Shown here piece after piece: positions 7,045-38,767 of a DNA stretch of 44,281 nt. A program made the translations under genes and the position numbers. Numbering within the stretch: position 1 is the first letter of the stretch; every line of letters begins with the position of its first letter. The notes under the pieces were generated by a model. The model saw only the letters and a program-made list of their open reading frames with translations. It did not search any database and was not told where the DNA came from. The stretch lies in the sequence record MW862804; one strand, given 5' to 3'. Source of the stretch: Escherichia phage UAE_MI-01.

Positions 7045-7072
7045 AAAAAGGGGCCATTATGGCCCCTTAATT
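7045..7072. terminator. Bidirectional terminator between moron island and Rz1
   Basis: GGGGCC-attat-GGCCCC flanked by A-run and T-rich tract. Confidence 0.6.
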
Positions 7073-7287
7073 ATTTGCTGCAACTCCAGCACCTGCGCCC
7101 TTAGCTTCGCCCCGCATTCCATATTTTTCACGTCAATCATCAAATCCTCGTCGGGGTCTGCGGACGGGTTATCGAACTTGCACGGCGGTCGCAGTGCCGA
7201 CTCCGTTAGCGGCATCAACGGCACGTTGCTTGATCCGCACGCGCTCAGCATCAAAACTACAATCAGGGCGGTTAGGGCGCGTAACAT
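7057..7287 (-). CDS. Rz1: o-spanin (Rz1-like outer membrane lipoprotein), overlapping the Rz gene in another frame
   Basis: Signal peptide plus lipobox MLSAC, Pro-rich; start embedded in Rz reading frame and extending past Rz stop. Confidence 0.6.
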   Translation of the reverse strand: MLRALTALIVVLMLSACGSSNVPLMPLTESALRPPCKFDNPSADPDEDLMIDVKNMECGAKLRAQVLELQQIIKGP

Positions 7288-7498
7288 ATTTAACAACCTC
7301 TTTTGTAATGGTCCGGTACTCCACGTCGCGGGCTTGTTCTGCCTGCACGGAGCGCTCAATAACTTTAGTTTGCTGCCGTTGGGCTTGGGCTTGCGCTTCT
7401 TGCGCCGCCTCCGCCACTACGCCAGCGCGATAGGAGTCGCCTAGCCAGAATCCTACAGCCAGACCGATAACCAGTCCGATCGCTGCATATTTAATCAC
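7169..7498 (-). CDS. Rz: i-spanin (Rz-like)
   Basis: N-terminal TM segment (IGLVIGLAVGFWLG) followed by Gln/Ala-rich coiled coil; overlapped Rz1. Confidence 0.65.
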   Translation of the reverse strand: MIKYAAIGLVIGLAVGFWLGDSYRAGVVAEAAQEAQAQAQRQQTKVIERSVQAEQARDVEYRTITKEVVKYVTRPNRPDCSFDAERVRIKQRAVDAANGVGTATAVQVR

Positions 7499-10109: not shown

Positions 10110-11495
10110 TTAGTAGAAGTCTACAGTAGGAACAGCGGCGATTGGACGAATCACAGGGAACAGGTGCGCAATAGGGTATCCCGCTGCGTCATTCATGTGG
10201 TCCACTCCTGCAGTTTTATCCGGCTCGCCTTTCTTAAGGTCGTACACCTGCTGTTCCAGACATTTCGCTAGTGTAGGGCATTTATCCAGGTTGACAAAAT
10301 ACTGGCGCACGCCCTTCGAGTTGCACATCATCGTATTCATCGCGATCAATCGGTCTTTCACAGGTGGGTTAACGCTGTCATATTCCACCTCGAAGCCAGC
10401 GTCTTCCAGTTGTGCGATATCGGACGACGACGCGTTGACCGTCTTGCGGGATTTGCCGCTGCTGTCCGGGTAAACGACAACACGACCGGCAGCACAATGA
10501 TCGGGGTAGCGCTCCTCGATCGCTTCAATCATAGCCGGGGTATCAAACAGGTCCACTAATTCATCCACGGCGTGAATCTCGTCGCGGAACTCCTTGTTCT
10601 CGGTGGTACGCTGCCGTCTTACATACACGACCGCCGCCATTTTCGTGACGTTAAAGTCCATACCGATAATCAGCGTATCTTCCGGTTGTACTTCTTCGGT
10701 GCTGGCGTTCTCCTCGCGATTGAACATCTTGTACACCGCGCCCGACGTAAGGTTAACAAACAGGCCGTTCAGGTACGCGTCGATCAGGTTAGCCGGGTAC
10801 TGACTGCGCAGCGTGTCGATAAAGTCTGCCGGTAAATGGTGGTTGTCTGTGGTCTTCGCCCGGATCAGGCGCTTTTGGCTATCCTTCTCCACCTCGAAAA
10901 TTTGGTACATCGCCCGGTAGCCTTCAGGCGTGGATACTATGACGAACTGGCGGACGAAGCCCGCACGCAGACGACCGAGCAATTTGTGATACGCCGCCAG
11001 CGCAACGTCTTGCTTCGTGGTGTCGAACTCGTCGGCAACAATCCACGCGGCGTTGACCCCGATCAGGCGAGTATAATTCTCCATTGATTCACAGATAACG
11101 CGAGTCCATTTGCCTTTCACCAGCACATTATAGATCTTGTCCTGCTTATTGAACTTCCACCGGAAGCCAGCCTCGTCAAACGCCTTTTCCAATTCCGGGT
11201 ACATGATCTTGACCAGGAGGGGAATAGTCGGCTCCGTCACAATGCCATCATGACCGGGGTTTAGTGTGAGAAGCTGGATTACCTTACGCGCAGCGACCCA
11301 CGACTTTCCGCCCCCGAAGCCGGAACACAGGCCGAGGATTTTAGTCTTCGTGTCGCGTAGTAGTTCGACCTGGTGCGGTAGGCAATCAGGCTGGTAAAGA
11401 CGCACCGCCTGCGCAACGCGTGTAGGGCGTGGCGGTCGGTTGCGCTTTGCGATCGCGCGTTCCAGTGCGCGGTGCTCTGCCGCATAGTTACGCAT
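10110..11495 (-). CDS. Terminase large subunit
   Basis: 461 aa; P-loop-like GFGGGKS near N-terminus; follows TerS-like gene with overlapping stop/start. Confidence 0.8.
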   Translation of the reverse strand: MRNYAAEHRALERAIAKRNRPPRPTRVAQAVRLYQPDCLPHQVELLRDTKTKILGLCSGFGGGKSWVAARKVIQLLTLNPGHDGIVTEPTIPLLVKIMYPELEKAFDEAGFRWKFNKQDKIYNVLVKGKWTRVICESMENYTRLIGVNAAWIVADEFDTTKQDVALAAYHKLLGRLRAGFVRQFVIVSTPEGYRAMYQIFEVEKDSQKRLIRAKTTDNHHLPADFIDTLRSQYPANLIDAYLNGLFVNLTSGAVYKMFNREENASTEEVQPEDTLIIGMDFNVTKMAAVVYVRRQRTTENKEFRDEIHAVDELVDLFDTPAMIEAIEERYPDHCAAGRVVVYPDSSGKSRKTVNASSSDIAQLEDAGFEVEYDSVNPPVKDRLIAMNTMMCNSKGVRQYFVNLDKCPTLAKCLEQQVYDLKKGEPDKTAGVDHMNDAAGYPIAHLFPVIRPIAAVPTVDFY

Positions 11496-12046
11496 TATTC
11501 GCCCTGGCCTTTGCCGGTAGGTTCCACTACGACGTCGCCGTTATCATCGTCGTCGTCATCCAGTGGGATATCGTCGCGGACTCCGTGGTTGGCTTTAAGC
11601 AGGAACGTAGCGAAGCCCGCCGCGATGGTTACGCCGCCAGCTTCCATCAGGAAAGTTTTCTGCAATTCCATAGCGTCCGCCATCGCCTCGGCGAACTCCT
11701 CATGTGCGCGCGCCCAGCGGTACAGGCAGGCAACGCCTACGCCAATTTCTGCGGCAAATCGGCCGAAGGTTGGCATTTTATTGCGCGGTATTACCTGCGC
11801 GGCCCCCTTATCAGAGTAGTTGACCTGCCAGGCTACGGCATCGGCGAAATAACGACGAAGCTGATCACAATACACAGTGCGGTAGTCGGTAGGGCGTCCG
11901 CATTTCCCGCCTTTACGGCGCTTGCCGTATTCGATCTCAGGTCCGAGATTGGTATGTTCGGTTTGCTCGCCTGGTTTACGGCGCGGGGTAACTGCGACTC
12001 GCCCGTCCAGTTTGGCGCGTCGGCCCTTAACTTTGATTTCTGCCAT
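11495..12046 (-). CDS. Terminase small subunit (putative)
   Basis: ATG 12046; basic N-terminus, HTH-like segment (FGRFAAEIGVGVACLYRWA), acidic tail; directly upstream of TerL. Confidence 0.55.
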   Translation of the reverse strand: MAEIKVKGRRAKLDGRVAVTPRRKPGEQTEHTNLGPEIEYGKRRKGGKCGRPTDYRTVYCDQLRRYFADAVAWQVNYSDKGAAQVIPRNKMPTFGRFAAEIGVGVACLYRWARAHEEFAEAMADAMELQKTFLMEAGGVTIAAGFATFLLKANHGVRDDIPLDDDDDDNGDVVVEPTGKGQGE

Positions 12047-13594: not shown

Positions 13595-14086
13595 TTATGC
13601 TGCGTTACGACCGATTCTCTCGGCAACGTCCCACTGCTTACCATCAAACAACGCCTGTCTGCCGATTGCACGGCGCACCAGACCCTTAAGCACTTCGCCA
13701 CCCTGCTTGCGGAACTGCGGCAGAGTAGCTCGTACCTTCGCCCAGTCGCCCAGTCGCACCGCATCGTCAAAGTCGTTGGCAATGTTGTCCGGTACGATCG
13801 GGCCAGGACCGGCATTGATTACCAGGTCCACCAGCGCGTCGAATTGCGCCTGGTTAATGCTCGGATGCGCGTATTTGTTCACCCAGTCCTCGGCATACGC
13901 CACATCGCGCTTGAGCAGTTCCAGCGCTTCAGCACGGGTAATGCTTCGAGGCGGATTAGTGCCGGTGTGCCCATAACCCCAGGTGTACAGGCCGCGGGCC
14001 TGCTCTTTCTTGGTCGCGAAATACGGCACGGGGCTGAAAGCCTCCCATGCTGCCGTAAATCGTAGACCGTTATCACTGAATCGCAT
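13595..14086 (-). CDS. Endolysin (lysozyme, T4/P22-type glycoside hydrolase family 24)
   Basis: N-terminal catalytic signature E...YTWGYGHTG; follows two small membrane proteins. Confidence 0.75.
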   Translation of the reverse strand: MRFSDNGLRFTAAWEAFSPVPYFATKKEQARGLYTWGYGHTGTNPPRSITRAEALELLKRDVAYAEDWVNKYAHPSINQAQFDALVDLVINAGPGPIVPDNIANDFDDAVRLGDWAKVRATLPQFRKQGGEVLKGLVRRAIGRQALFDGKQWDVAERIGRNAA

Positions 14087-14318
14087 GTTTTACCCCATTT
14101 AAAACAGCATTACGCAGTGTGCGCAATGCAAACAGCCAGATTAACGCGGTCCAGGTGGTGTCCGATACGTCTCCTGTTTGCAACAATCCGATAAGACAGA
14201 CCATTGCCGTTAACAGATATAACACCCGGCCGAAGAAGCCATCCTGAACGGATGGCGCGTACACGTTAAACAGGGACGAAGCCCCTATGATAACAAACAA
14301 CAGGACGGTGATAATCAT
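14073..14318 (-). CDS. Holin-like small membrane protein
   Basis: 81 aa, at least two hydrophobic segments; overlaps endolysin start. Confidence 0.55.
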   Translation of the reverse strand: MIITVLLFVIIGASSLFNVYAPSVQDGFFGRVLYLLTAMVCLIGLLQTGDVSDTTWTALIWLFALRTLRNAVLNGVKHAIQ

Positions 14319-14605
14319 TTTGCGCCCCCCGGAAGGTGTAGCGACGCAATTGTCTCCCGGATCCGGTCAGCGATTGGCATCCAGAAGATGGCAGTTACGA
14401 AGCCCAAACCGGCGACAGTGCGCTCCCCGGACAAACCAGACCACTCGGCAATAGCTGGCGCACCAAATATGGCGCACAGGAAGCCAACTACGACATATAA
14501 AACGAAGTTCAACGGCCCTTTCGTCGCCTCGCCGTGAATGCGTGCGCCTACGAAGCCACCAGCAAGACACGCAAGGGCGAATAACCACTCGTTTAGCTTA
14601 TCCAT
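14315..14605 (-). CDS. Holin/antiholin-like membrane protein
   Basis: 96 aa, multiple hydrophobic segments; overlaps next gene (ATGA-type coupling). Confidence 0.5.
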   Translation of the reverse strand: MDKLNEWLFALACLAGGFVGARIHGEATKGPLNFVLYVVVGFLCAIFGAPAIAEWSGLSGERTVAGLGFVTAIFWMPIADRIRETIASLHLPGGAK

Positions 14606-32401: not shown

Positions 32402-34018
32402 TTATTTACCTTCCAGCTTCTCCACTTTATGCAACAGGTGGACGAAGGCGGCACACAGATCCATCAACAGCACGTTACTATCCAAAGACAGCACATCGTC
32501 GGTATACCCGATCTCCTTGCGGTCGACTACAACCTCATTCCCTTCCTCGTCCACCCCCTTGACGTCCTCATAAATGGCGTAACCCGGCAGCAAATGCACG
32601 TATTCTGGGTCGATCCTTGCCAGGTCCTGCGCGATAAGGCCGTATCGCTGTACGTCCGACTCCTTATACTTGAACATTGCCGGAAGCCATTGGCGAACGC
32701 GGTTGTAGCTTTCCTCGCCGTCTGTGTATTGGATTTCTTTTTTAAGGTCGCGGTCCGATAGCGGCGCTTTCTGGAACTCGTTAACCGACGGGTTGCCGCT
32801 GTTACCGCTAATAAGCCTTTGGTCTGGCAAGAAGCGGAATAGCGCCTCAGTCACACCATTCTTCCACACATGGACGCGGTAGTCTGATACGTGTGTATCC
32901 CCACCCCTTACCAGGCCCGCGCGCGTCCAGTCCGCATACCACCTATACATCGTATGCCCAACCCAGCTATCAATCCCGTATAAAGCGTTTGACAGACTTA
33001 GCCCGTTAGCCTCTAGGGGCGCTAACTCTACTGAACTGCCGCCATTCAGGTGCAGCGCACCTAACTTAACTAAACTATCCTCGCCGACCCCAAGATTAGT
33101 GCGCGCAGCGGCTACAGTAGTCGCCCCTGTTCCGCCCTTGGTGATAGGCACTGTGTTCTCCGTAGCGACAGACCCCAAACCTAGATTTGAGCGTGCCGCC
33201 GATTGATCTGCTACGTCTGCCAGGTTCTGAGACGTCTTCATGAATTGCGTAGGGTCGATCGCGTTTTTGAAGTCTTCTGCTTCGTCCCGATACCCTTTCG
33301 CGGCATCTCTGGCGGCTTGCGCGTCAGTCTTCGCCGTATTGGCCTGGTCCCGAATAATGCCGGTATCCGTCCTGATCTGATTCGTCTGGTCCTTGATGGC
33401 TTGCGTATCGGCCTTAATCTGATTCGTCTGCGTCTTGATGGTGTTGGTGGCGTCGTGGATCGCCTGCGTATCGGCCTTGATTTGGTCGGTCTGCGTCTTG
33501 ATGGTATTGGCATCGTTCTTGAAGCCTTCGGCCTCATTGCGAAATCCTTGCGCGGCTGCTTCAGACGCGGCGGCTTGTTGTTGTAGGTTGCGCATCTCCA
33601 CCGGGTCGATCTGCTTCATTAGCTGCGACAGATATCCCCATGACATGCCCTGCATAACCTGCCCGTTAGGTAACGTCACTGTGATTTCTTCAGCGTCGCC
33701 AAAGATTGCACGCCAGTTGTTTTCGTCAGCGATCATCAAGCGCAACGCTTTTTGGGCCTGTACTGTTACGCCCATCGTTGCCAGAGACATGGTATCGCGC
33801 TTAACGCCATCCCACGCGAGGCCAGTTGCCGTGGGGCCGTCGAACGGCAGCACAAGCGTAAGCGCGGTGTCGCTTTCTATGGACGCGATTGCCACGGTGT
33901 ATGGGACTTGCCCTACCACCAACGTTAAGAAGTCGCCAGATGCAAACGCGGTAAACGTCGTGCCTACCCCGACAACCGCCTTGCTGTTATTCGTTACGGA
34001 TAGTGTACCCGCTGCCAT
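32402..34018 (-). CDS. Tail fibre protein with coiled-coil repeats and C-terminal intramolecular chaperone (peptidase S74-like) domain
   Basis: ATG 34018 with GAGGA RBS; repeated IKTQTDQIKADTQAI heptad-like units; C-terminal SDRDLKKEI ... GLIAQDL segment characteristic of auto-cleaving fibre chaperone domains. Confidence 0.65.
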   Translation of the reverse strand: MAAGTLSVTNNSKAVVGVGTTFTAFASGDFLTLVVGQVPYTVAIASIESDTALTLVLPFDGPTATGLAWDGVKRDTMSLATMGVTVQAQKALRLMIADENNWRAIFGDAEEITVTLPNGQVMQGMSWGYLSQLMKQIDPVEMRNLQQQAAASEAAAQGFRNEAEGFKNDANTIKTQTDQIKADTQAIHDATNTIKTQTNQIKADTQAIKDQTNQIRTDTGIIRDQANTAKTDAQAARDAAKGYRDEAEDFKNAIDPTQFMKTSQNLADVADQSAARSNLGLGSVATENTVPITKGGTGATTVAAARTNLGVGEDSLVKLGALHLNGGSSVELAPLEANGLSLSNALYGIDSWVGHTMYRWYADWTRAGLVRGGDTHVSDYRVHVWKNGVTEALFRFLPDQRLISGNSGNPSVNEFQKAPLSDRDLKKEIQYTDGEESYNRVRQWLPAMFKYKESDVQRYGLIAQDLARIDPEYVHLLPGYAIYEDVKGVDEEGNEVVVDRKEIGYTDDVLSLDSNVLLMDLCAAFVHLLHKVEKLEGK

Positions 34019-34098
34019 AGCTGAATCCTCATAAATTGGTTGCAATCCAGGTCGAGCGGTGTAATACTAAAACTCAACCAAATATAGGGGATGATACC

Positions 34099-34317
34099 AT
34101 GAAAACCTTAATTATGATTTGTGCGGTTCTTTTGTCCGGTTGCGCCAACATGCCGTCTAAAATCTGCGACGCGACATATGTTAATAGCGGCATGGAATAC
34201 TCGGTCCCGGTGTTCGGTGTTGCCGATTTTAGTGGGCATAAAATGCTGCGGGCGGGCTACCCGTTCAACTTCCGGTATGTTTCGGTAGACCACTTCAAAA
34301 GCACCACTTGCAAATAA
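34099..34317 (+). CDS. Small outer-membrane lipoprotein, Cor/Llp-like superinfection exclusion candidate
   Basis: Signal peptide with lipobox LLSGC; 72 aa; divergently oriented inside the tail fibre region; own RBS and terminator. Confidence 0.45.
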   Translation: MKTLIMICAVLLSGCANMPSKICDATYVNSGMEYSVPVFGVADFSGHKMLRAGYPFNFRYVSVDHFKSTTCK

Positions 34318-34333
34318 GCCCCAGAAGGGGCTT
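34318..34333. terminator. Bidirectional terminator
   Basis: AGCCCC-agaa-GGGGCT. Confidence 0.55.
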
Positions 34334-35005
34334 TCATATTCCATCCACGTTAATCGCTGTCAAAGCAACCCCAGTGTTTTGATACCCCGCGACGCTACCA
34401 GACCCCGCTTGTGTTGCCACGGCGTTAATCCGTGTTCCGCTTCCGTTGTCGTAAGCCCCTGCCCCCGCCGTGATCTGGATAATCTGCGGCTGCCCCTGTA
34501 CAAAGATCTGAATCAGAGTAGCGCCCATTAACATAGGTGATACCGCGTACTTACCTGGTAGCGTCTGGTCTATGTTAATCCCTCCGTTATTGCCGAAGCT
34601 GCCAACGGTGACTAAATCGGTGAGTACCTTGCTTTCGTTGGTTAGTATGCAAGTCCCGCTGGCGTCCCAAATAGCAAACCCCCATCTCGGCAGCGGTTGC
34701 GGGAATCGCGCGAATATGTACGCCGTGACGGTAAAATGTGGGTTATTCTGCCCCTGAATGCTTCCGCTAAATATAATCCGGTTACCTGATCGTGACGCCG
34801 CCAGGACGCAGCGGTTATTTGACCGCATAAACACCATCGCCGGATAGTTCGATGGGATATCCACGCCCCCGCTTGCGGTTTTATAATCAGCACCGGCGTC
34901 CACTGAATTTGCCGACACCTTAGCGTAGAGGACGAACGGCGTTGAGTTTGGCGTGACGAATGGGTTGCCGTTGTTGTTATCGATTAACGCGCCGAAGTTT
35001 GCCAT
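34334..35005 (-). CDS. Tail-associated protein (putative distal tail / fibre protein)
   Basis: 223 aa Gly/Asn/Ser-rich; downstream of J-like gene; GGAGAA RBS. Confidence 0.4.
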   Translation of the reverse strand: MANFGALIDNNNGNPFVTPNSTPFVLYAKVSANSVDAGADYKTASGGVDIPSNYPAMVFMRSNNRCVLAASRSGNRIIFSGSIQGQNNPHFTVTAYIFARFPQPLPRWGFAIWDASGTCILTNESKVLTDLVTVGSFGNNGGINIDQTLPGKYAVSPMLMGATLIQIFVQGQPQIIQITAGAGAYDNGSGTRINAVATQAGSGSVAGYQNTGVALTAINVDGI

Positions 35006-35007
35006 TT

Positions 35008-35310
35008 TTACGCTTTCTCCACAAAAACTACTACTTCACATTCTGACGCCGGGTAGTTTCCAATACCGACGCTGTTTGCCGCAGATACTGTTATCGTGTT
35101 CCCGCTGGCACGGATCGCCCGACCGACCGTAGTGCCGCCTACGTCCAGCGTAACCGCAAAACCTACTTTCATACCGGACGGGATATCGAACGACCACGCC
35201 CCCCATGTTTGACCTTGAGTCAGTTTAATAATTCCGACAACCGAGACAGGCTTGATCCCGTAGTTGTTTGGTCGCCCTTGCGCGTCCCATGTTGCGACAC
35301 CGAAAGCCAT
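35008..35310 (-). CDS. Small tail-associated protein (putative)
   Basis: ATG 35310 with GGAGG RBS after intergenic hairpin; synteny. Confidence 0.4.
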   Translation of the reverse strand: MAFGVATWDAQGRPNNYGIKPVSVVGIIKLTQGQTWGAWSFDIPSGMKVGFAVTLDVGGTTVGRAIRASGNTITVSAANSVGIGNYPASECEVVVFVEKA

Positions 35311-35347
35311 GCTATACCTCCAAAAGAAAGGGGCCGAAGCCCCTATG

Positions 35348-38300
35348 CTACCAACTACCAGTGAGTTCACCAATCTGCACGCGGAGCACGCCGTTTCCGT
35401 CCCTAACGCTGATTTGCGTGTTTGTCTGTTTCATCCCGCCGCCGTTACCGGTTCCCAGGTTGATAAACGTTCCGTCTTTCCCTAAGCGCCAACCACGCGT
35501 GTTGCCGTCATAGTTATTCGATTGCAGCGTGTCCGTGATCTGCGCGAAGTTGATGGACGCATTCTTGATGCGTGCGGTGTCAATGTACACCTGTCCGCCG
35601 TCAACAATAAACGCGGACGAAAGCGACCCATTCGACGGGTGCATGATGTAGAACTGGTCCGCCTTGAACGCGATGCGTGATTTAACCGCGCCGCCTTCCG
35701 CAACGACGGAAAGTTGCATACCGGCATCGTAGTAAGTCCCGTTATACGTTACGCCCGCCTTGAGGCTGTAGGTAGCGTTACCACCGGAGTGGTTAAACGT
35801 AGACGTCATCTTCTGCTCTATAGCGGCGGACTGCTGCCCGAACTGTGCCGCCACCTGGGTCTTGTACTCCGCCAGCGCGCCCGCTACGTCTGCCGTTGCC
35901 GTTTGTACCTGCTGGATGGCGGCTTCCTGTTCCCCAAACTTAGCGGCAACAGTTTGCTGATACTGGGCGAATGCTTGCTCGTGCGTGCTTTGCGCGGTCT
36001 GCAACGTGTGGATTGCCGCTTCCGCATCGTCAAGGCGCGTGCCGATCAACGTCTCCAGTTGCGCTACGGCCTTGTTGGCATCCGCGGCTACGTTATAAGC
36101 CACCTTGATTTCTGCGTAAATCCCTTTGTACTCGGCACGGGCGTTAAACAACTGCTGCGCGTCGGTGAGCATTGCCTCGTAAATACCCTGCGGGATCGTG
36201 TCGATTGCTTCCTGGAAGCGTTTACCATCCTCGGAAGTCAAGAACTCGTTATCAAGCCCCTTCATGTACTCGTCAACTTTGTCACTCACCTGCCCTTCAA
36301 ACGGGGCCGACCAGTCCGACAGGTTGCCGATTTTATCCGCTACACGGGCGCGCAACTGCTGGTAAATTCCGAACTCCAGCGACGTTTGAGCGTACTCCGC
36401 GCCAGGATATGGGACGTTTGTTAAGAATTTCCATTCCGTTTCGCCCGTCTTGCGCACTTCAAGCTCGGTGTAAGAGATATCCGTCGCGGCGTTGTTGTGG
36501 TTCCACTTCCATAGGATCTGGTGCAAACCTGAAATCGCGTTGGTGATGATTGGCGCATTAAGTCCACCGAGGCGACCTTCGATCGGCGTGATGGGAGACG
36601 ACACCCACGGGGACGAGATTTCACCCATACCGATTGCGCGGACGCGTGCCTGATAGTTACCGGAGAACACGTTGGGGATGTGCGCCCCATTCGACGCCGT
36701 GCGCGGGATATTCACCCAGTCGTTACCCCACTGGATTTCCATATTCTGCAGGCTTGTACGCCGCCACTGGATTTCATACACCACGGCATCCTTCACCGGC
36801 GGGAAAACAATATCCACGTTGGTGATTAGCTGGCCTTGCGATGAGATCTGCGACGGGGTGATGGTAACGGATTCCGGCCCCTTCATTACACCGTCTGGCA
36901 CTTGCGTGAAGATACCAGGATCAAGGCGAGCGCCATTATCAACGGCATCATACTTGCTGTCGTTGTATTCAATCCCGCGCACCGAAAAAGTGCTCGTAGA
37001 GTCGTCATACTCCAGATCGGTGATGCGGAATTTTTGCAACTGGATATCGTCGCCATCAACGCAAAACGGCTGGTCTGGAATCGGGTCGGCATCCAGTGCG
37101 GTTTTTAGCGTGACCTTGTTGCCGTTGACGCTGGCGATCTCGCGAGTCTCCACATTTCCGCTATCTGTGCGGACCAGGAACTTATCGCCAGGGCGGAATG
37201 TGATTTCGCTGTCTGTGTTAAGCACGGTACGCGTGCCAGGGTCCGACAACAGGCGACCGCCGCGAGTCTCGAATCCGCCAGAAATATTAGTATCTGCGAT
37301 CGCAACTACGCTACCAGGGATAAAGAATAACCCCTCCATGCCCACCTTAAAACTAACTTGCTGGTCAAGCTGGTTTGAGATTAGCGCCCAGTGCCCGCGG
37401 CGTTGCGCTTCAGATTCACGCGTACAGCCGATCGCCGTAATATCAAGACGGTTAATCTTATGGCGGCGCACCAGTTCGACGCGCTGTCCCGTTGCGATGG
37501 CATCTTCATAGTGGTTCTTCGGGTTGCCGTATGCGACCGCGAAAGTTGAATACCGAGTTTTCTGGCTGCCAGATGCGTAGTCGAATCGTCCATCAATAAC
37601 CGAGGCGTTGGTGATAGTGTGTGACACTGCCGCGACCGGTTGGTCACTGACGATATTCAACATCTGGTTTCCCCACCAGGTCATTCCGGCGAAGATGGCG
37701 GCTAAATCCTTAAGCACGGTCCAGGCGTCTGTCTGCGACTGGATGTACATATCATTCTTAAATCGGATTTCCCGTCCGCCGTTGCCGTCGCTGACCAGCT
37801 GGTCGCAGCGCTGCGCAATCTGGTAGAGCGCGTACCGGTTCAGCATTTGCGGTTTGATACGCCGACCGAGGCCGAATCGCTCAGTAATACAAATATCGTA
37901 CCAGTGCCACGCTGGGTTATCCGTCCATGCGCGTTTGAATGTGCCGTCCCAGTCTCCCGAATAAGTATGATTGATCGGGTCGTAGTTGTTCGGGATTAAA
38001 ACCTTGCGGCCTTTGCACTTGATGGACACGCGCGGGATGTTCTGGAACGCTTTAGCGTCGAACTCCACAAACAACAGCGCAGTTAGAGGGTAACGCAGGC
38101 GGGCGTCGATAATCTCAGTGATGGACTGCACCCGGATATCATTAACCACTTTCGCCGATGTGGAGTCTGCCGTTATGCGGTGCACCTCCACGCGCCAGCC
38201 GGTGTTAACGTTCGGCGGCAGTTCGATGCGGTGATCGCGCTCGTACAGCGACATTGTTTTACCAACGGCAGCGAATGTAAACTCACGCGGGTCGGCGTTA

Positions 38301-38767
38301 TCCGTATACACAACGATCTTATAATCGATGCGCCCGCCCACCAGGTCGCCATTATCTTCGTTTGTGTACAAGGCCGGAATGCCGATGCGAATGCGCACGG
38401 CGTCCAAACTGGTGTCGTTAATCTGGCGCACCCACGGCGTGCCGTTTTCCAGTTTTACACCGACGGATTGCTCACTTTCCACCGCTGAAAATCCGTGGAT
38501 CACGTCCTGGTGCTGTGTGCCTGGGCGGAACTCCACTCGCGCGCCGGGGAAGTTTTCGGACAAGTCAGCGTTCTGGATCGGCGTTCCGTCCAGATATACA
38601 CGCTGCCGCAATTCGCTGGCGCTGGTAATACTTTCGAATTCACCCTCGCCCAGCGCAAGCAAGATGCGGATTTTAGCCAGGGAATGCAGGCTATCCGGCG
38701 TTTCCTGCGGAGTGTGCTGTTTGCCGCCGCCGCCTTTATGCCCTGTGACGTCGTAGATAATCGTCAT
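35348..38767 (-). CDS. Central tail fibre / host specificity protein (lambda gpJ-like)
   Basis: 1139 aa; N-terminus MTIIYDVTGHKGGGGKQHTPQETPDSLHS resembles the lambda J N-terminus; follows I/K/L/M genes. Confidence 0.85.
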   Translation of the reverse strand: MTIIYDVTGHKGGGGKQHTPQETPDSLHSLAKIRILLALGEGEFESITSASELRQRVYLDGTPIQNADLSENFPGARVEFRPGTQHQDVIHGFSAVESEQSVGVKLENGTPWVRQINDTSLDAVRIRIGIPALYTNEDNGDLVGGRIDYKIVVYTDNADPREFTFAAVGKTMSLYERDHRIELPPNVNTGWRVEVHRITADSTSAKVVNDIRVQSITEIIDARLRYPLTALLFVEFDAKAFQNIPRVSIKCKGRKVLIPNNYDPINHTYSGDWDGTFKRAWTDNPAWHWYDICITERFGLGRRIKPQMLNRYALYQIAQRCDQLVSDGNGGREIRFKNDMYIQSQTDAWTVLKDLAAIFAGMTWWGNQMLNIVSDQPVAAVSHTITNASVIDGRFDYASGSQKTRYSTFAVAYGNPKNHYEDAIATGQRVELVRRHKINRLDITAIGCTRESEAQRRGHWALISNQLDQQVSFKVGMEGLFFIPGSVVAIADTNISGGFETRGGRLLSDPGTRTVLNTDSEITFRPGDKFLVRTDSGNVETREIASVNGNKVTLKTALDADPIPDQPFCVDGDDIQLQKFRITDLEYDDSTSTFSVRGIEYNDSKYDAVDNGARLDPGIFTQVPDGVMKGPESVTITPSQISSQGQLITNVDIVFPPVKDAVVYEIQWRRTSLQNMEIQWGNDWVNIPRTASNGAHIPNVFSGNYQARVRAIGMGEISSPWVSSPITPIEGRLGGLNAPIITNAISGLHQILWKWNHNNAATDISYTELEVRKTGETEWKFLTNVPYPGAEYAQTSLEFGIYQQLRARVADKIGNLSDWSAPFEGQVSDKVDEYMKGLDNEFLTSEDGKRFQEAIDTIPQGIYEAMLTDAQQLFNARAEYKGIYAEIKVAYNVAADANKAVAQLETLIGTRLDDAEAAIHTLQTAQSTHEQAFAQYQQTVAAKFGEQEAAIQQVQTATADVAGALAEYKTQVAAQFGQQSAAIEQKMTSTFNHSGGNATYSLKAGVTYNGTYYDAGMQLSVVAEGGAVKSRIAFKADQFYIMHPSNGSLSSAFIVDGGQVYIDTARIKNASINFAQITDTLQSNNYDGNTRGWRLGKDGTFINLGTGNGGGMKQTNTQISVRDGNGVLRVQIGELTGSW

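Follow-up and report, generated by a model that had tools for sequence, protein, structure and literature searches.

A cor Gene Beside the Receptor-Binding Genes of Escherichia Phage UAE_MI-01 and Its Probable Role in Closing Infected Cells to FhuA-Dependent Phages

Introduction

What would a virulent siphophage gain from a small lipoprotein gene that is read against its tail genes and lies between the tail tip operon and the lateral tail fibre gene? We asked this question for such a gene in Escherichia phage UAE_MI-01 (record MW862804), whose sequence of 44,281 nucleotides is called the window throughout. Two lipoproteins of other phages are relevant here. Cor of mEp167 and of phi80 has been reported to exclude FhuA-dependent phages and to inactivate FhuA functions (Uc-Mass 2004), and Llp of T5 is described as binding the periplasmic face of FhuA, allosterically folding its loops 7 and 8 inward. 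Llp and Cor are regarded as one fold in the literature, where Cor is docked by AF3 to FhuA from the periplasm (PMC9586334, PMC13164509), an ipTM of 0.84 being given for the complex with a T1-like Cor (PMC13164509). We propose, with a probability of roughly 85%, that the gene is cor, carried by a virulent Dhillonvirus, and that its product in the outer membrane binds FhuA from the periplasm and closes the cell to FhuA-dependent phages. The gene as such is already known, as it is annotated as Cor or superinfection exclusion protein in sister Dhillonvirus genomes; for UAE_MI-01 we infer the mechanism of Cor from sequence features and homologues.

Coding Potential and Family of the Lipoprotein Gene

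The cor gene (34099..34317, +) runs from the ATG at 34099 to the TAA at 34315-34317, and its 72 codons translate into the prolipoprotein MKTLIMICAVLLSGCANMPSKICDATYVNSGMEYSVPVFGVADFSGHKMLRAGYPFNFRYVSVDHFKSTTCK. Reading this frame bears out the 72-aa plus-strand protein of the initial annotation, together with its signal peptide and its lipobox LLSGC. The N-terminus of the prolipoprotein is MKTLIMICAVLLSGC, followed by Ala, and the segment at 34099..34143 (+) is read from the sequence as a signal peptide MKTLIMICAVLLSG ahead of the lipobox Cys, comprising K2, a hydrophobic core (TLIMICAVL) and the lipobox L12-S13-G14-C15 (L-S-G-C codons 34132-34143). The predicted mature protein has 58 amino acids (6.5 kDa, pI 8.6), beginning with the lipidated Cys15. 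The lipobox is of the form LLSG/C-A, with Ala and no Asp at position +2. Cor thus has no inner-membrane retention signal, and under the established '+2 rule' the Ala marks it for predicted sorting to the outer membrane via Lol. In each of the 15 Cor members that were aligned, position +2 is A, S, K or Q. Across seven Dhillonvirus copies, cor is under purifying selection, with a dN/dS of about 0.06 (mean dN 0.047, mean dS 0.78, dS reaching about 1), and because of this ratio and of the conservation in homologues we regard it as a selected protein-coding gene and not a chance ORF.

A Cor/Llp-like protein had been suggested here as a candidate on the strength of position and lipobox alone, and the homology found is to the Cor family. 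The protein scores 60.7 bits against the NCBIfam equivalog NF047972, 'phage exclusion lipoprotein Cor' (E 9.8e-17, residues 2-71; curated cut-off 31 bits), and matches PHROG 1119, 'Cor superinfection exclusion protein', over its full length (E 6.3e-28). On these two matches, on the identity to the phi80 and T1 proteins (43-51%) and on the matching neighbour genes, the product is a member of the Cor family. Its sequence matches that of the protein annotated as 'putative superinfection exclusion protein' in YD-2008.s (EpYD_16) at 100% identity and that of gp27 of SSL-2009a at 94%, with identities falling to about 50-51% for T1 Cor, about 46% for HK022 and the mEp phages, about 42-43% for phi80 and 40% for N15. 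A Pfam search returned no model for Cor; its sole match, DcuA_DcuB (E 0.26), was set aside as noise from the hydrophobic signal peptide.

Cor homologues were found in 244 phage records by a translated search of 50,697 such records, the most distant being those of ES18, Stx2 phage 86 and SSU5 (30%). A word-indexed protein search recovered only 6 close relatives, and only 13 of 1.84 billion cluster representatives, searched exhaustively, matched at E <= 1e-3, from which we take the family to be small and bound to enterobacterial phages. The lipobox C15, C23, C71, A52, G53, V61 and F66 are invariant in the Cor alignments, and R51 and F56 nearly so. The motif RAGYPF is unchanged in the Dhillonvirus, T1 and phi80 copies of one alignment (A1); in the wider family A52 and G53 are its only invariant residues, Y-P being replaced in Stx2 phage 86 and SSU5. 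A statement in PMC9586334 suggests that C23 and C71 form an intramolecular disulfide in Cor.

An AlphaFold model of Cor, built on an alignment of 7 close sequences, contains five beta strands, with a pLDDT of 65 for the whole chain and about 64-80 for the mature domain. When this model of moderate confidence was compared with 350,542 PDB chains using Foldseek, the top match was the T5 Llp-FhuA complex (8a60_B; E 0.075, probability 1.00, TM 0.49/0.56, rmsd 2.9 A over 51 columns, 24% identity). A profile of 15 Cor sequences also placed Llp (8a60_B) first among PDB sequences (E 0.013), and the single Cor sequence reached E 0.97 against the same chain, the alignment covering mostly the signal peptide and first strand in both cases. 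We regard these indications that Cor shares the Llp fold as weak but consistent; two recent papers arrived at this fold from better models. In the single-sequence structure comparison, gamma-crystallin S came ahead of Llp, a match that we attribute to chance (E ~0.7-1).

Transcription and Translation Signals

The gene does have its own ribosome-binding site, as the initial annotation had stated: AGGGGA at 34086..34091 (+) lies 7 nt upstream of the ATG, and 16 of the 17 Dhillonvirus loci in the alignment retain it in the form AGGRGA. The interval of 80 bp between the ATG of the fibre gene and that of cor is conserved in 16/17 loci as well, irrespective of the lipoprotein allele. Within this region lies a candidate sigma-70 promoter of cor (34040..34068, +), made of TTGCAA at 34040-34045, a 17-nt spacer and an extended -10 element TGtAATACT at 34060-34068. 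It is preserved alongside any allele (16/17 loci), and the n of TGnAATACT is the sole variable base of that element. The consensus promoter scan reported none upstream of cor, the candidate scoring below its threshold, so that this promoter is one that we infer. What the scan did report are two promoter-like matches within the cor start region, at 34091-34118 (+) and 34138-34111 (-); the second, directed toward the fibre gene, was dropped because allele classes C and D do not preserve it. In the phi80 record, cor is annotated with its own promoter and start site. The gene probably has its own promoter in the window too, and as its transcription runs opposite to the tail operons, expression independent of the late genes would be possible.

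Downstream, a hairpin with a 7-bp G+C stem (AAGCCCC-AGAA-GGGGCTT; 34316..34333, unstranded) lies between convergent stop codons, occupying the 16-nt gap between the stop of cor and that of the 223-aa gene (34334-34336). Its folding energy is -12.2 kcal/mol on the plus strand (z -2.3) and -14.6 kcal/mol on the minus strand (z -1.6). A simple terminator scan did not list it, probably because the extension of the stem takes up part of the T run. A terminator is annotated at the equivalent place in the T1 record, and it is plausible that the hairpin terminates transcription in both directions, that of cor and that of the J/p100/p223 operon. Of the terminator that had been ascribed to the lipoprotein gene itself, the hairpin between the two stops is thus confirmed, and its action as a terminator, given the negative scan, is plausible.

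Genomic Context and Related Phages

The cor gene stands tail-to-tail with the J operon and head-to-head with the lateral fibre gene. Its convergent neighbour encodes a 223-aa protein (p223; 34334..35005, -) of PHROG 425, 'membrane associated protein', a candidate FhuA receptor-binding protein that is 48% identical to phi80 gp23 (E 1e-63) and 47% identical to T1 Orf31 (E 2e-52); a protein of the PHROG 425 type has been proposed as an FhuA binder from AlphaFold modelling (PMC12309495). The second cassette gene encodes a 100-aa protein (p100; 35008..35310, -) of PHROG 557, 'outer membrane protein', with 74% identity to phi80 gp22. Neither p100 nor p223 has a Pfam match. For p100, the mechanical ORF call has 121 aa (35008-35373) and begins at the TTG at 35373, overlapping the end of J. 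As the PHROG 557 match spans residues 22-120 of this long ORF and relatives annotate 100 aa, we place the start at the ATG at 35310 and not at this TTG. The operon is completed by the J-like central tail fibre or tail tip protein of 1139 aa (35348..38767, -).

On the other side, and divergent from cor, lies the lateral tail fibre gene (32402..34018, -; Pfam PF13884, PHROG 1980), whose product carries a C-terminal intramolecular chaperone domain. Its start is likely the ATG at 34018 (MAAGTLSV..., with GAGGA before it), as in relatives, and not the TTG at 34045. Self-overlapping BLAST matches reveal internal near-repeats in the fibre gene at 33368-33510, where the motif IKTQT(D/N)QIKADTQAI is repeated. 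In its distal part (about 32408-33270), the fibre gene has a second region that is hypervariable among relatives.

In the records of T1, phi80 and N15, the annotated genes follow one another as J, ~100 aa, ~224 aa, cor, and so they do in the window. More broadly, cor comes directly after J-p100-p223 in 61 of the 83 Cor-containing loci, and the J/p100/p223/cor cassette is present in HK022-like prophages as well. The strand of cor relative to J is opposite in virulent phages (T1-like, Dhillonvirus) and the same in temperate ones. Over the 3 kb around cor, the window is 89-94% identical to many Escherichia Dhillonvirus phages, e.g., SSL-2009a and YD-2008.s. The annotated relative SSL-2009a has an identical gene order, and in its annotation no lysogeny functions, integrase or repressor were seen. 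Three records labelled 'Campylobacter phage' (A144, MG065648.1; A13a, MG065679.1; A110b, MG065688.1) contain ~90% Dhillonvirus-identical DNA or T1-like Cor homologues, and their host attribution looks doubtful.

Lipoprotein Alleles Among Dhillonviruses

Sixteen Dhillonvirus loci were collected via the conserved part of J, and all of them (16/16) carry a small opposite-strand lipoprotein gene just before the fibre gene, which comes in four types. Cor is found together with p100 and p223 in 6 of the 16 loci. PHROG 4281 lipoproteins occupy the slot in others, with 73 aa in five loci and 72-76 aa in three, the latter being ~90% identical to chain D of PDB 9RPS, which is Rtp45, an LptDE-specific exclusion protein. 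In the last type (2/16), a PHROG 12984 lipoprotein of 80-81 aa stands beside a longer J (1262-1272 aa). The loci with a lipoprotein other than Cor are L090, L093, L096, L098 and L102 (lipoprotein at ~11346-11664, -), L091, L095 and L097, and L100 and L101. That phages would place a receptor-blocking lipoprotein in exactly such a position, as had been supposed for the window, agrees well with a slot that is filled in 16/16 loci and whose type co-varies with the receptor-binding cassette. The change of lipoprotein type with the receptor module argues for a receptor-specific blocker and against a generic membrane effect.

In comparisons of the window with every non-Cor Dhillonvirus, homology at the DNA level ends at 35512, inside J near residue 1086, and the other breakpoint, at 34146 or 34112, lies within the codons of the signal peptide. 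It follows from these breakpoints that the mature Cor domain moves with the receptor-binding genes, in an exchangeable cassette of ~1.4 kb (34147..35511, unstranded) that takes in p100, p223, the hairpin and mature Cor as well as ~54 codons at the end of J. The signal peptide MKTLIMICAVLLSGCA, of 16 residues, is identical in the Cor allele and in one Rtp45-related allele. We would give even odds to a broader proposal, that Dhillonviruses exchange receptor-binding genes and the matching exclusion lipoprotein as one unit of ~1.4 kb with junctions in J (near residue 1086) and in the signal-peptide codons; the segment of signal peptide, 5'UTR and promoter would then act as a recombination anchor, and a new receptor specificity would never be acquired without its cognate blocker. 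That receptor loci are shared and carry cognate exclusion genes is, as a general idea, already published (BASEL papers), and only the exact junctions of the cassette and the signal peptide common to Cor and Rtp45-related alleles are modestly new.

Three loci (L087, L089, and L092; p223 homologue at 10759-11433) encode a Cor 89-90% identical to that of the window, next to a p223 homologue (224 aa) with 54% and a p100 with 71% identity. This pairing of a near-identical Cor with divergent p223 and p100 indicates that the FhuA-type cassette has sub-alleles. A further set of loci (L027, L028, L043, L045, L047-L049, L052-L055, L057-L062, L065, L073, L076) encodes a Cor-like lipoprotein of 91 aa with a C-terminal tail DKKPE(I/V)RNDLPTKSA (e.g., L052:3663-3938). 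Its gene is flanked by genes for a major tail protein, PHROG 791 and the regulator-like PHROG 129, with a tape-measure gene on the other side. These loci have no adjacent J, p100 or p223, the only J match within 6 kb being a marginal one at the far end of L073, and the gene resembles a Cor moron that has left the cassette in which Cor usually occurs.

Function and Alternative Explanations

The Cor proteins of phi80, T1, N15, HK022 and mEp167 resemble that of the window in length class, lipoprotein signal peptide, the two Cys and RAGYPF; their genes likewise follow those of J, the 100-aa and the ~224-aa protein, and FhuA is their inferred target as well. The lambdoid Cor has a 3-residue insert (KQE/KQQ) after the lipobox, whereas that of the window is devoid of it and slightly shorter. 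In strand, the gene of the window is opposite to J as in T1, unlike in temperate phages, and a role in lysogenic conversion does not apply to it, the phage being virulent. EpYD_16 of YD-2008.s and gp27 of SSL-2009a are the same gene at the same locus in sister isolates, with no substantial difference. T5 Llp is, like the Cor of the window, a small outer-membrane lipoprotein of a virulent siphophage, with Cys residues shortly past the lipobox and close to the C terminus, and T5 uses FhuA, as the phage of the window probably does. Yet Llp adjoins the receptor-binding gene pb5 whereas Cor adjoins p100 and p223, the sequence similarity of the two is not significant by itself, and RAGYPF was not part of the alignment to Llp. 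Rtp45 (PDB 9RPS; Rtp and Oekolampad-type phages) shares with Cor the genomic slot and orientation, in sibling Dhillonviruses, but differs in its unrelated mature domain (PHROG 4281), its target LptD and its steric mechanism.

Concerning the receptor, the Dhillonviruses JLBYU37, JLBYU60, and Teewinot have been reported to be experimentally FhuA-dependent (Lewis 2023, PMC10373560), and the Cor proteins of JLBYU37 and Teewinot are 85% identical to that of the window. According to PMC13164509, the BASEL Dhillonvirus/Drexlerviridae phages with the full cor cassette are all FhuA users, and the same article summarises the tie between cassette and FhuA from Wietzorrek 2006 and the BASEL analysis. In the mechanism that we propose, the Cor prolipoprotein would be exported, lipidated on Cys15 and cleaved by signal peptidase II, and mature Cor would be anchored in the inner leaflet of the outer membrane. 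Its 58-residue beta domain, presumably stapled by the disulfide C23-C71, would bind the periplasmic face of FhuA, the receptor that the J/p100/p223 module of the phage would target. Cor would lock the conformation of FhuA such that the surface loops refuse phage, as structurally shown for T5 Llp; the infected cell would be shut to further FhuA-dependent phages, and released progeny would not be lost on FhuA in debris.

The last two consequences may differ in their weight. With the same Cor and the same target, the selected benefit could be lytic conversion, that is, the masking of FhuA on lysing cells, debris and vesicles, which would spare progeny virions, as proposed for T5 Llp. Prophage-type immunity is irrelevant to a virulent Dhillonvirus with neither integrase nor repressor in its annotated relative, and the protection of progeny is listed among the roles of Llp and Cor in PMC13164509; this benefit is nonetheless compatible with superinfection exclusion, and the sequence does not separate the two, so that we hold it tentatively and lean slightly against it as the main one. 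The role of FhuA itself may be questioned on two grounds. Interactions of Cor with OmpA, OmpC, OmpF, and other outer membrane proteins have been reported (Arguijo-Hernandez et al. 2018), hence the binding of FhuA may be neither direct nor exclusive, and Cor might act via these proteins without a one-to-one complex, disturbing the function or accessibility of FhuA indirectly. This route seems unlikely to us, given that Cor strictly co-varies with the FhuA-type cassette and gives way to another lipoprotein when the receptor module differs, that its model is nearest to Llp, a direct FhuA binder, and that AF3 puts a T1-like Cor on periplasmic FhuA with the ipTM of 0.84 cited above (PMC13164509). 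Alternatively, the target could be another TonB-dependent transporter, e.g., BtuB, or the phage could use a receptor other than FhuA. Cor-like proteins accompany BtuB in some T5-like phages, BtuB-dependent themselves, and in one Tempevirinae case (PMC13164509), from which it is clear that the target does not follow from family membership by itself, and the Dhillonvirus PTXU06 has been reported to be BtuB-dependent (PMC10373560). The window, however, contains the complete J/p100/p223/cor cassette, which among BASEL phages is reported only with FhuA (PMC13164509), and its Cor is 85-94% identical to the Cor of FhuA-dependent or FhuA-assigned Dhillonviruses, which makes a different target very improbable.

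There is next to nothing to recommend the view that 34099-34317 encodes a lysis protein or is a chance ORF. Its small size and lipobox do recall Rz1, the outer-membrane lipoprotein that acts as o-spanin. But the window has a separate Rz/Rz1 pair at 7057-7498 (-), which shares 97-99% identity with the spanins annotated in SSL-2009a, and the gene is neither embedded in nor adjacent to Rz, for which reason we rejected the o-spanin identity; searches of Pfam, PHROG and NCBIfam showed no similarity of Cor to spanin families, and the dN/dS of 0.06 rules out a chance ORF. Between the Rz/Rz1 pair and the genes for holin and endolysin (13598-14605, -) there are ~6 kb, as in SSL-2009a.

If Cor indeed binds FhuA from the periplasm and closes the cell, as we consider most probable, the locus has practical consequences. 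The J/p100/p223/cor cassette would predict from sequence alone the use of FhuA by this phage. It would also predict that infected cells are refractory to phages of the T1, T5 and phi80 types, which may be useful for the design of cocktails and for forecasts of cross-resistance. The locus also clearly exemplifies the rule by which small siphophages keep a receptor-specific blocking lipoprotein beside their receptor-binding genes.
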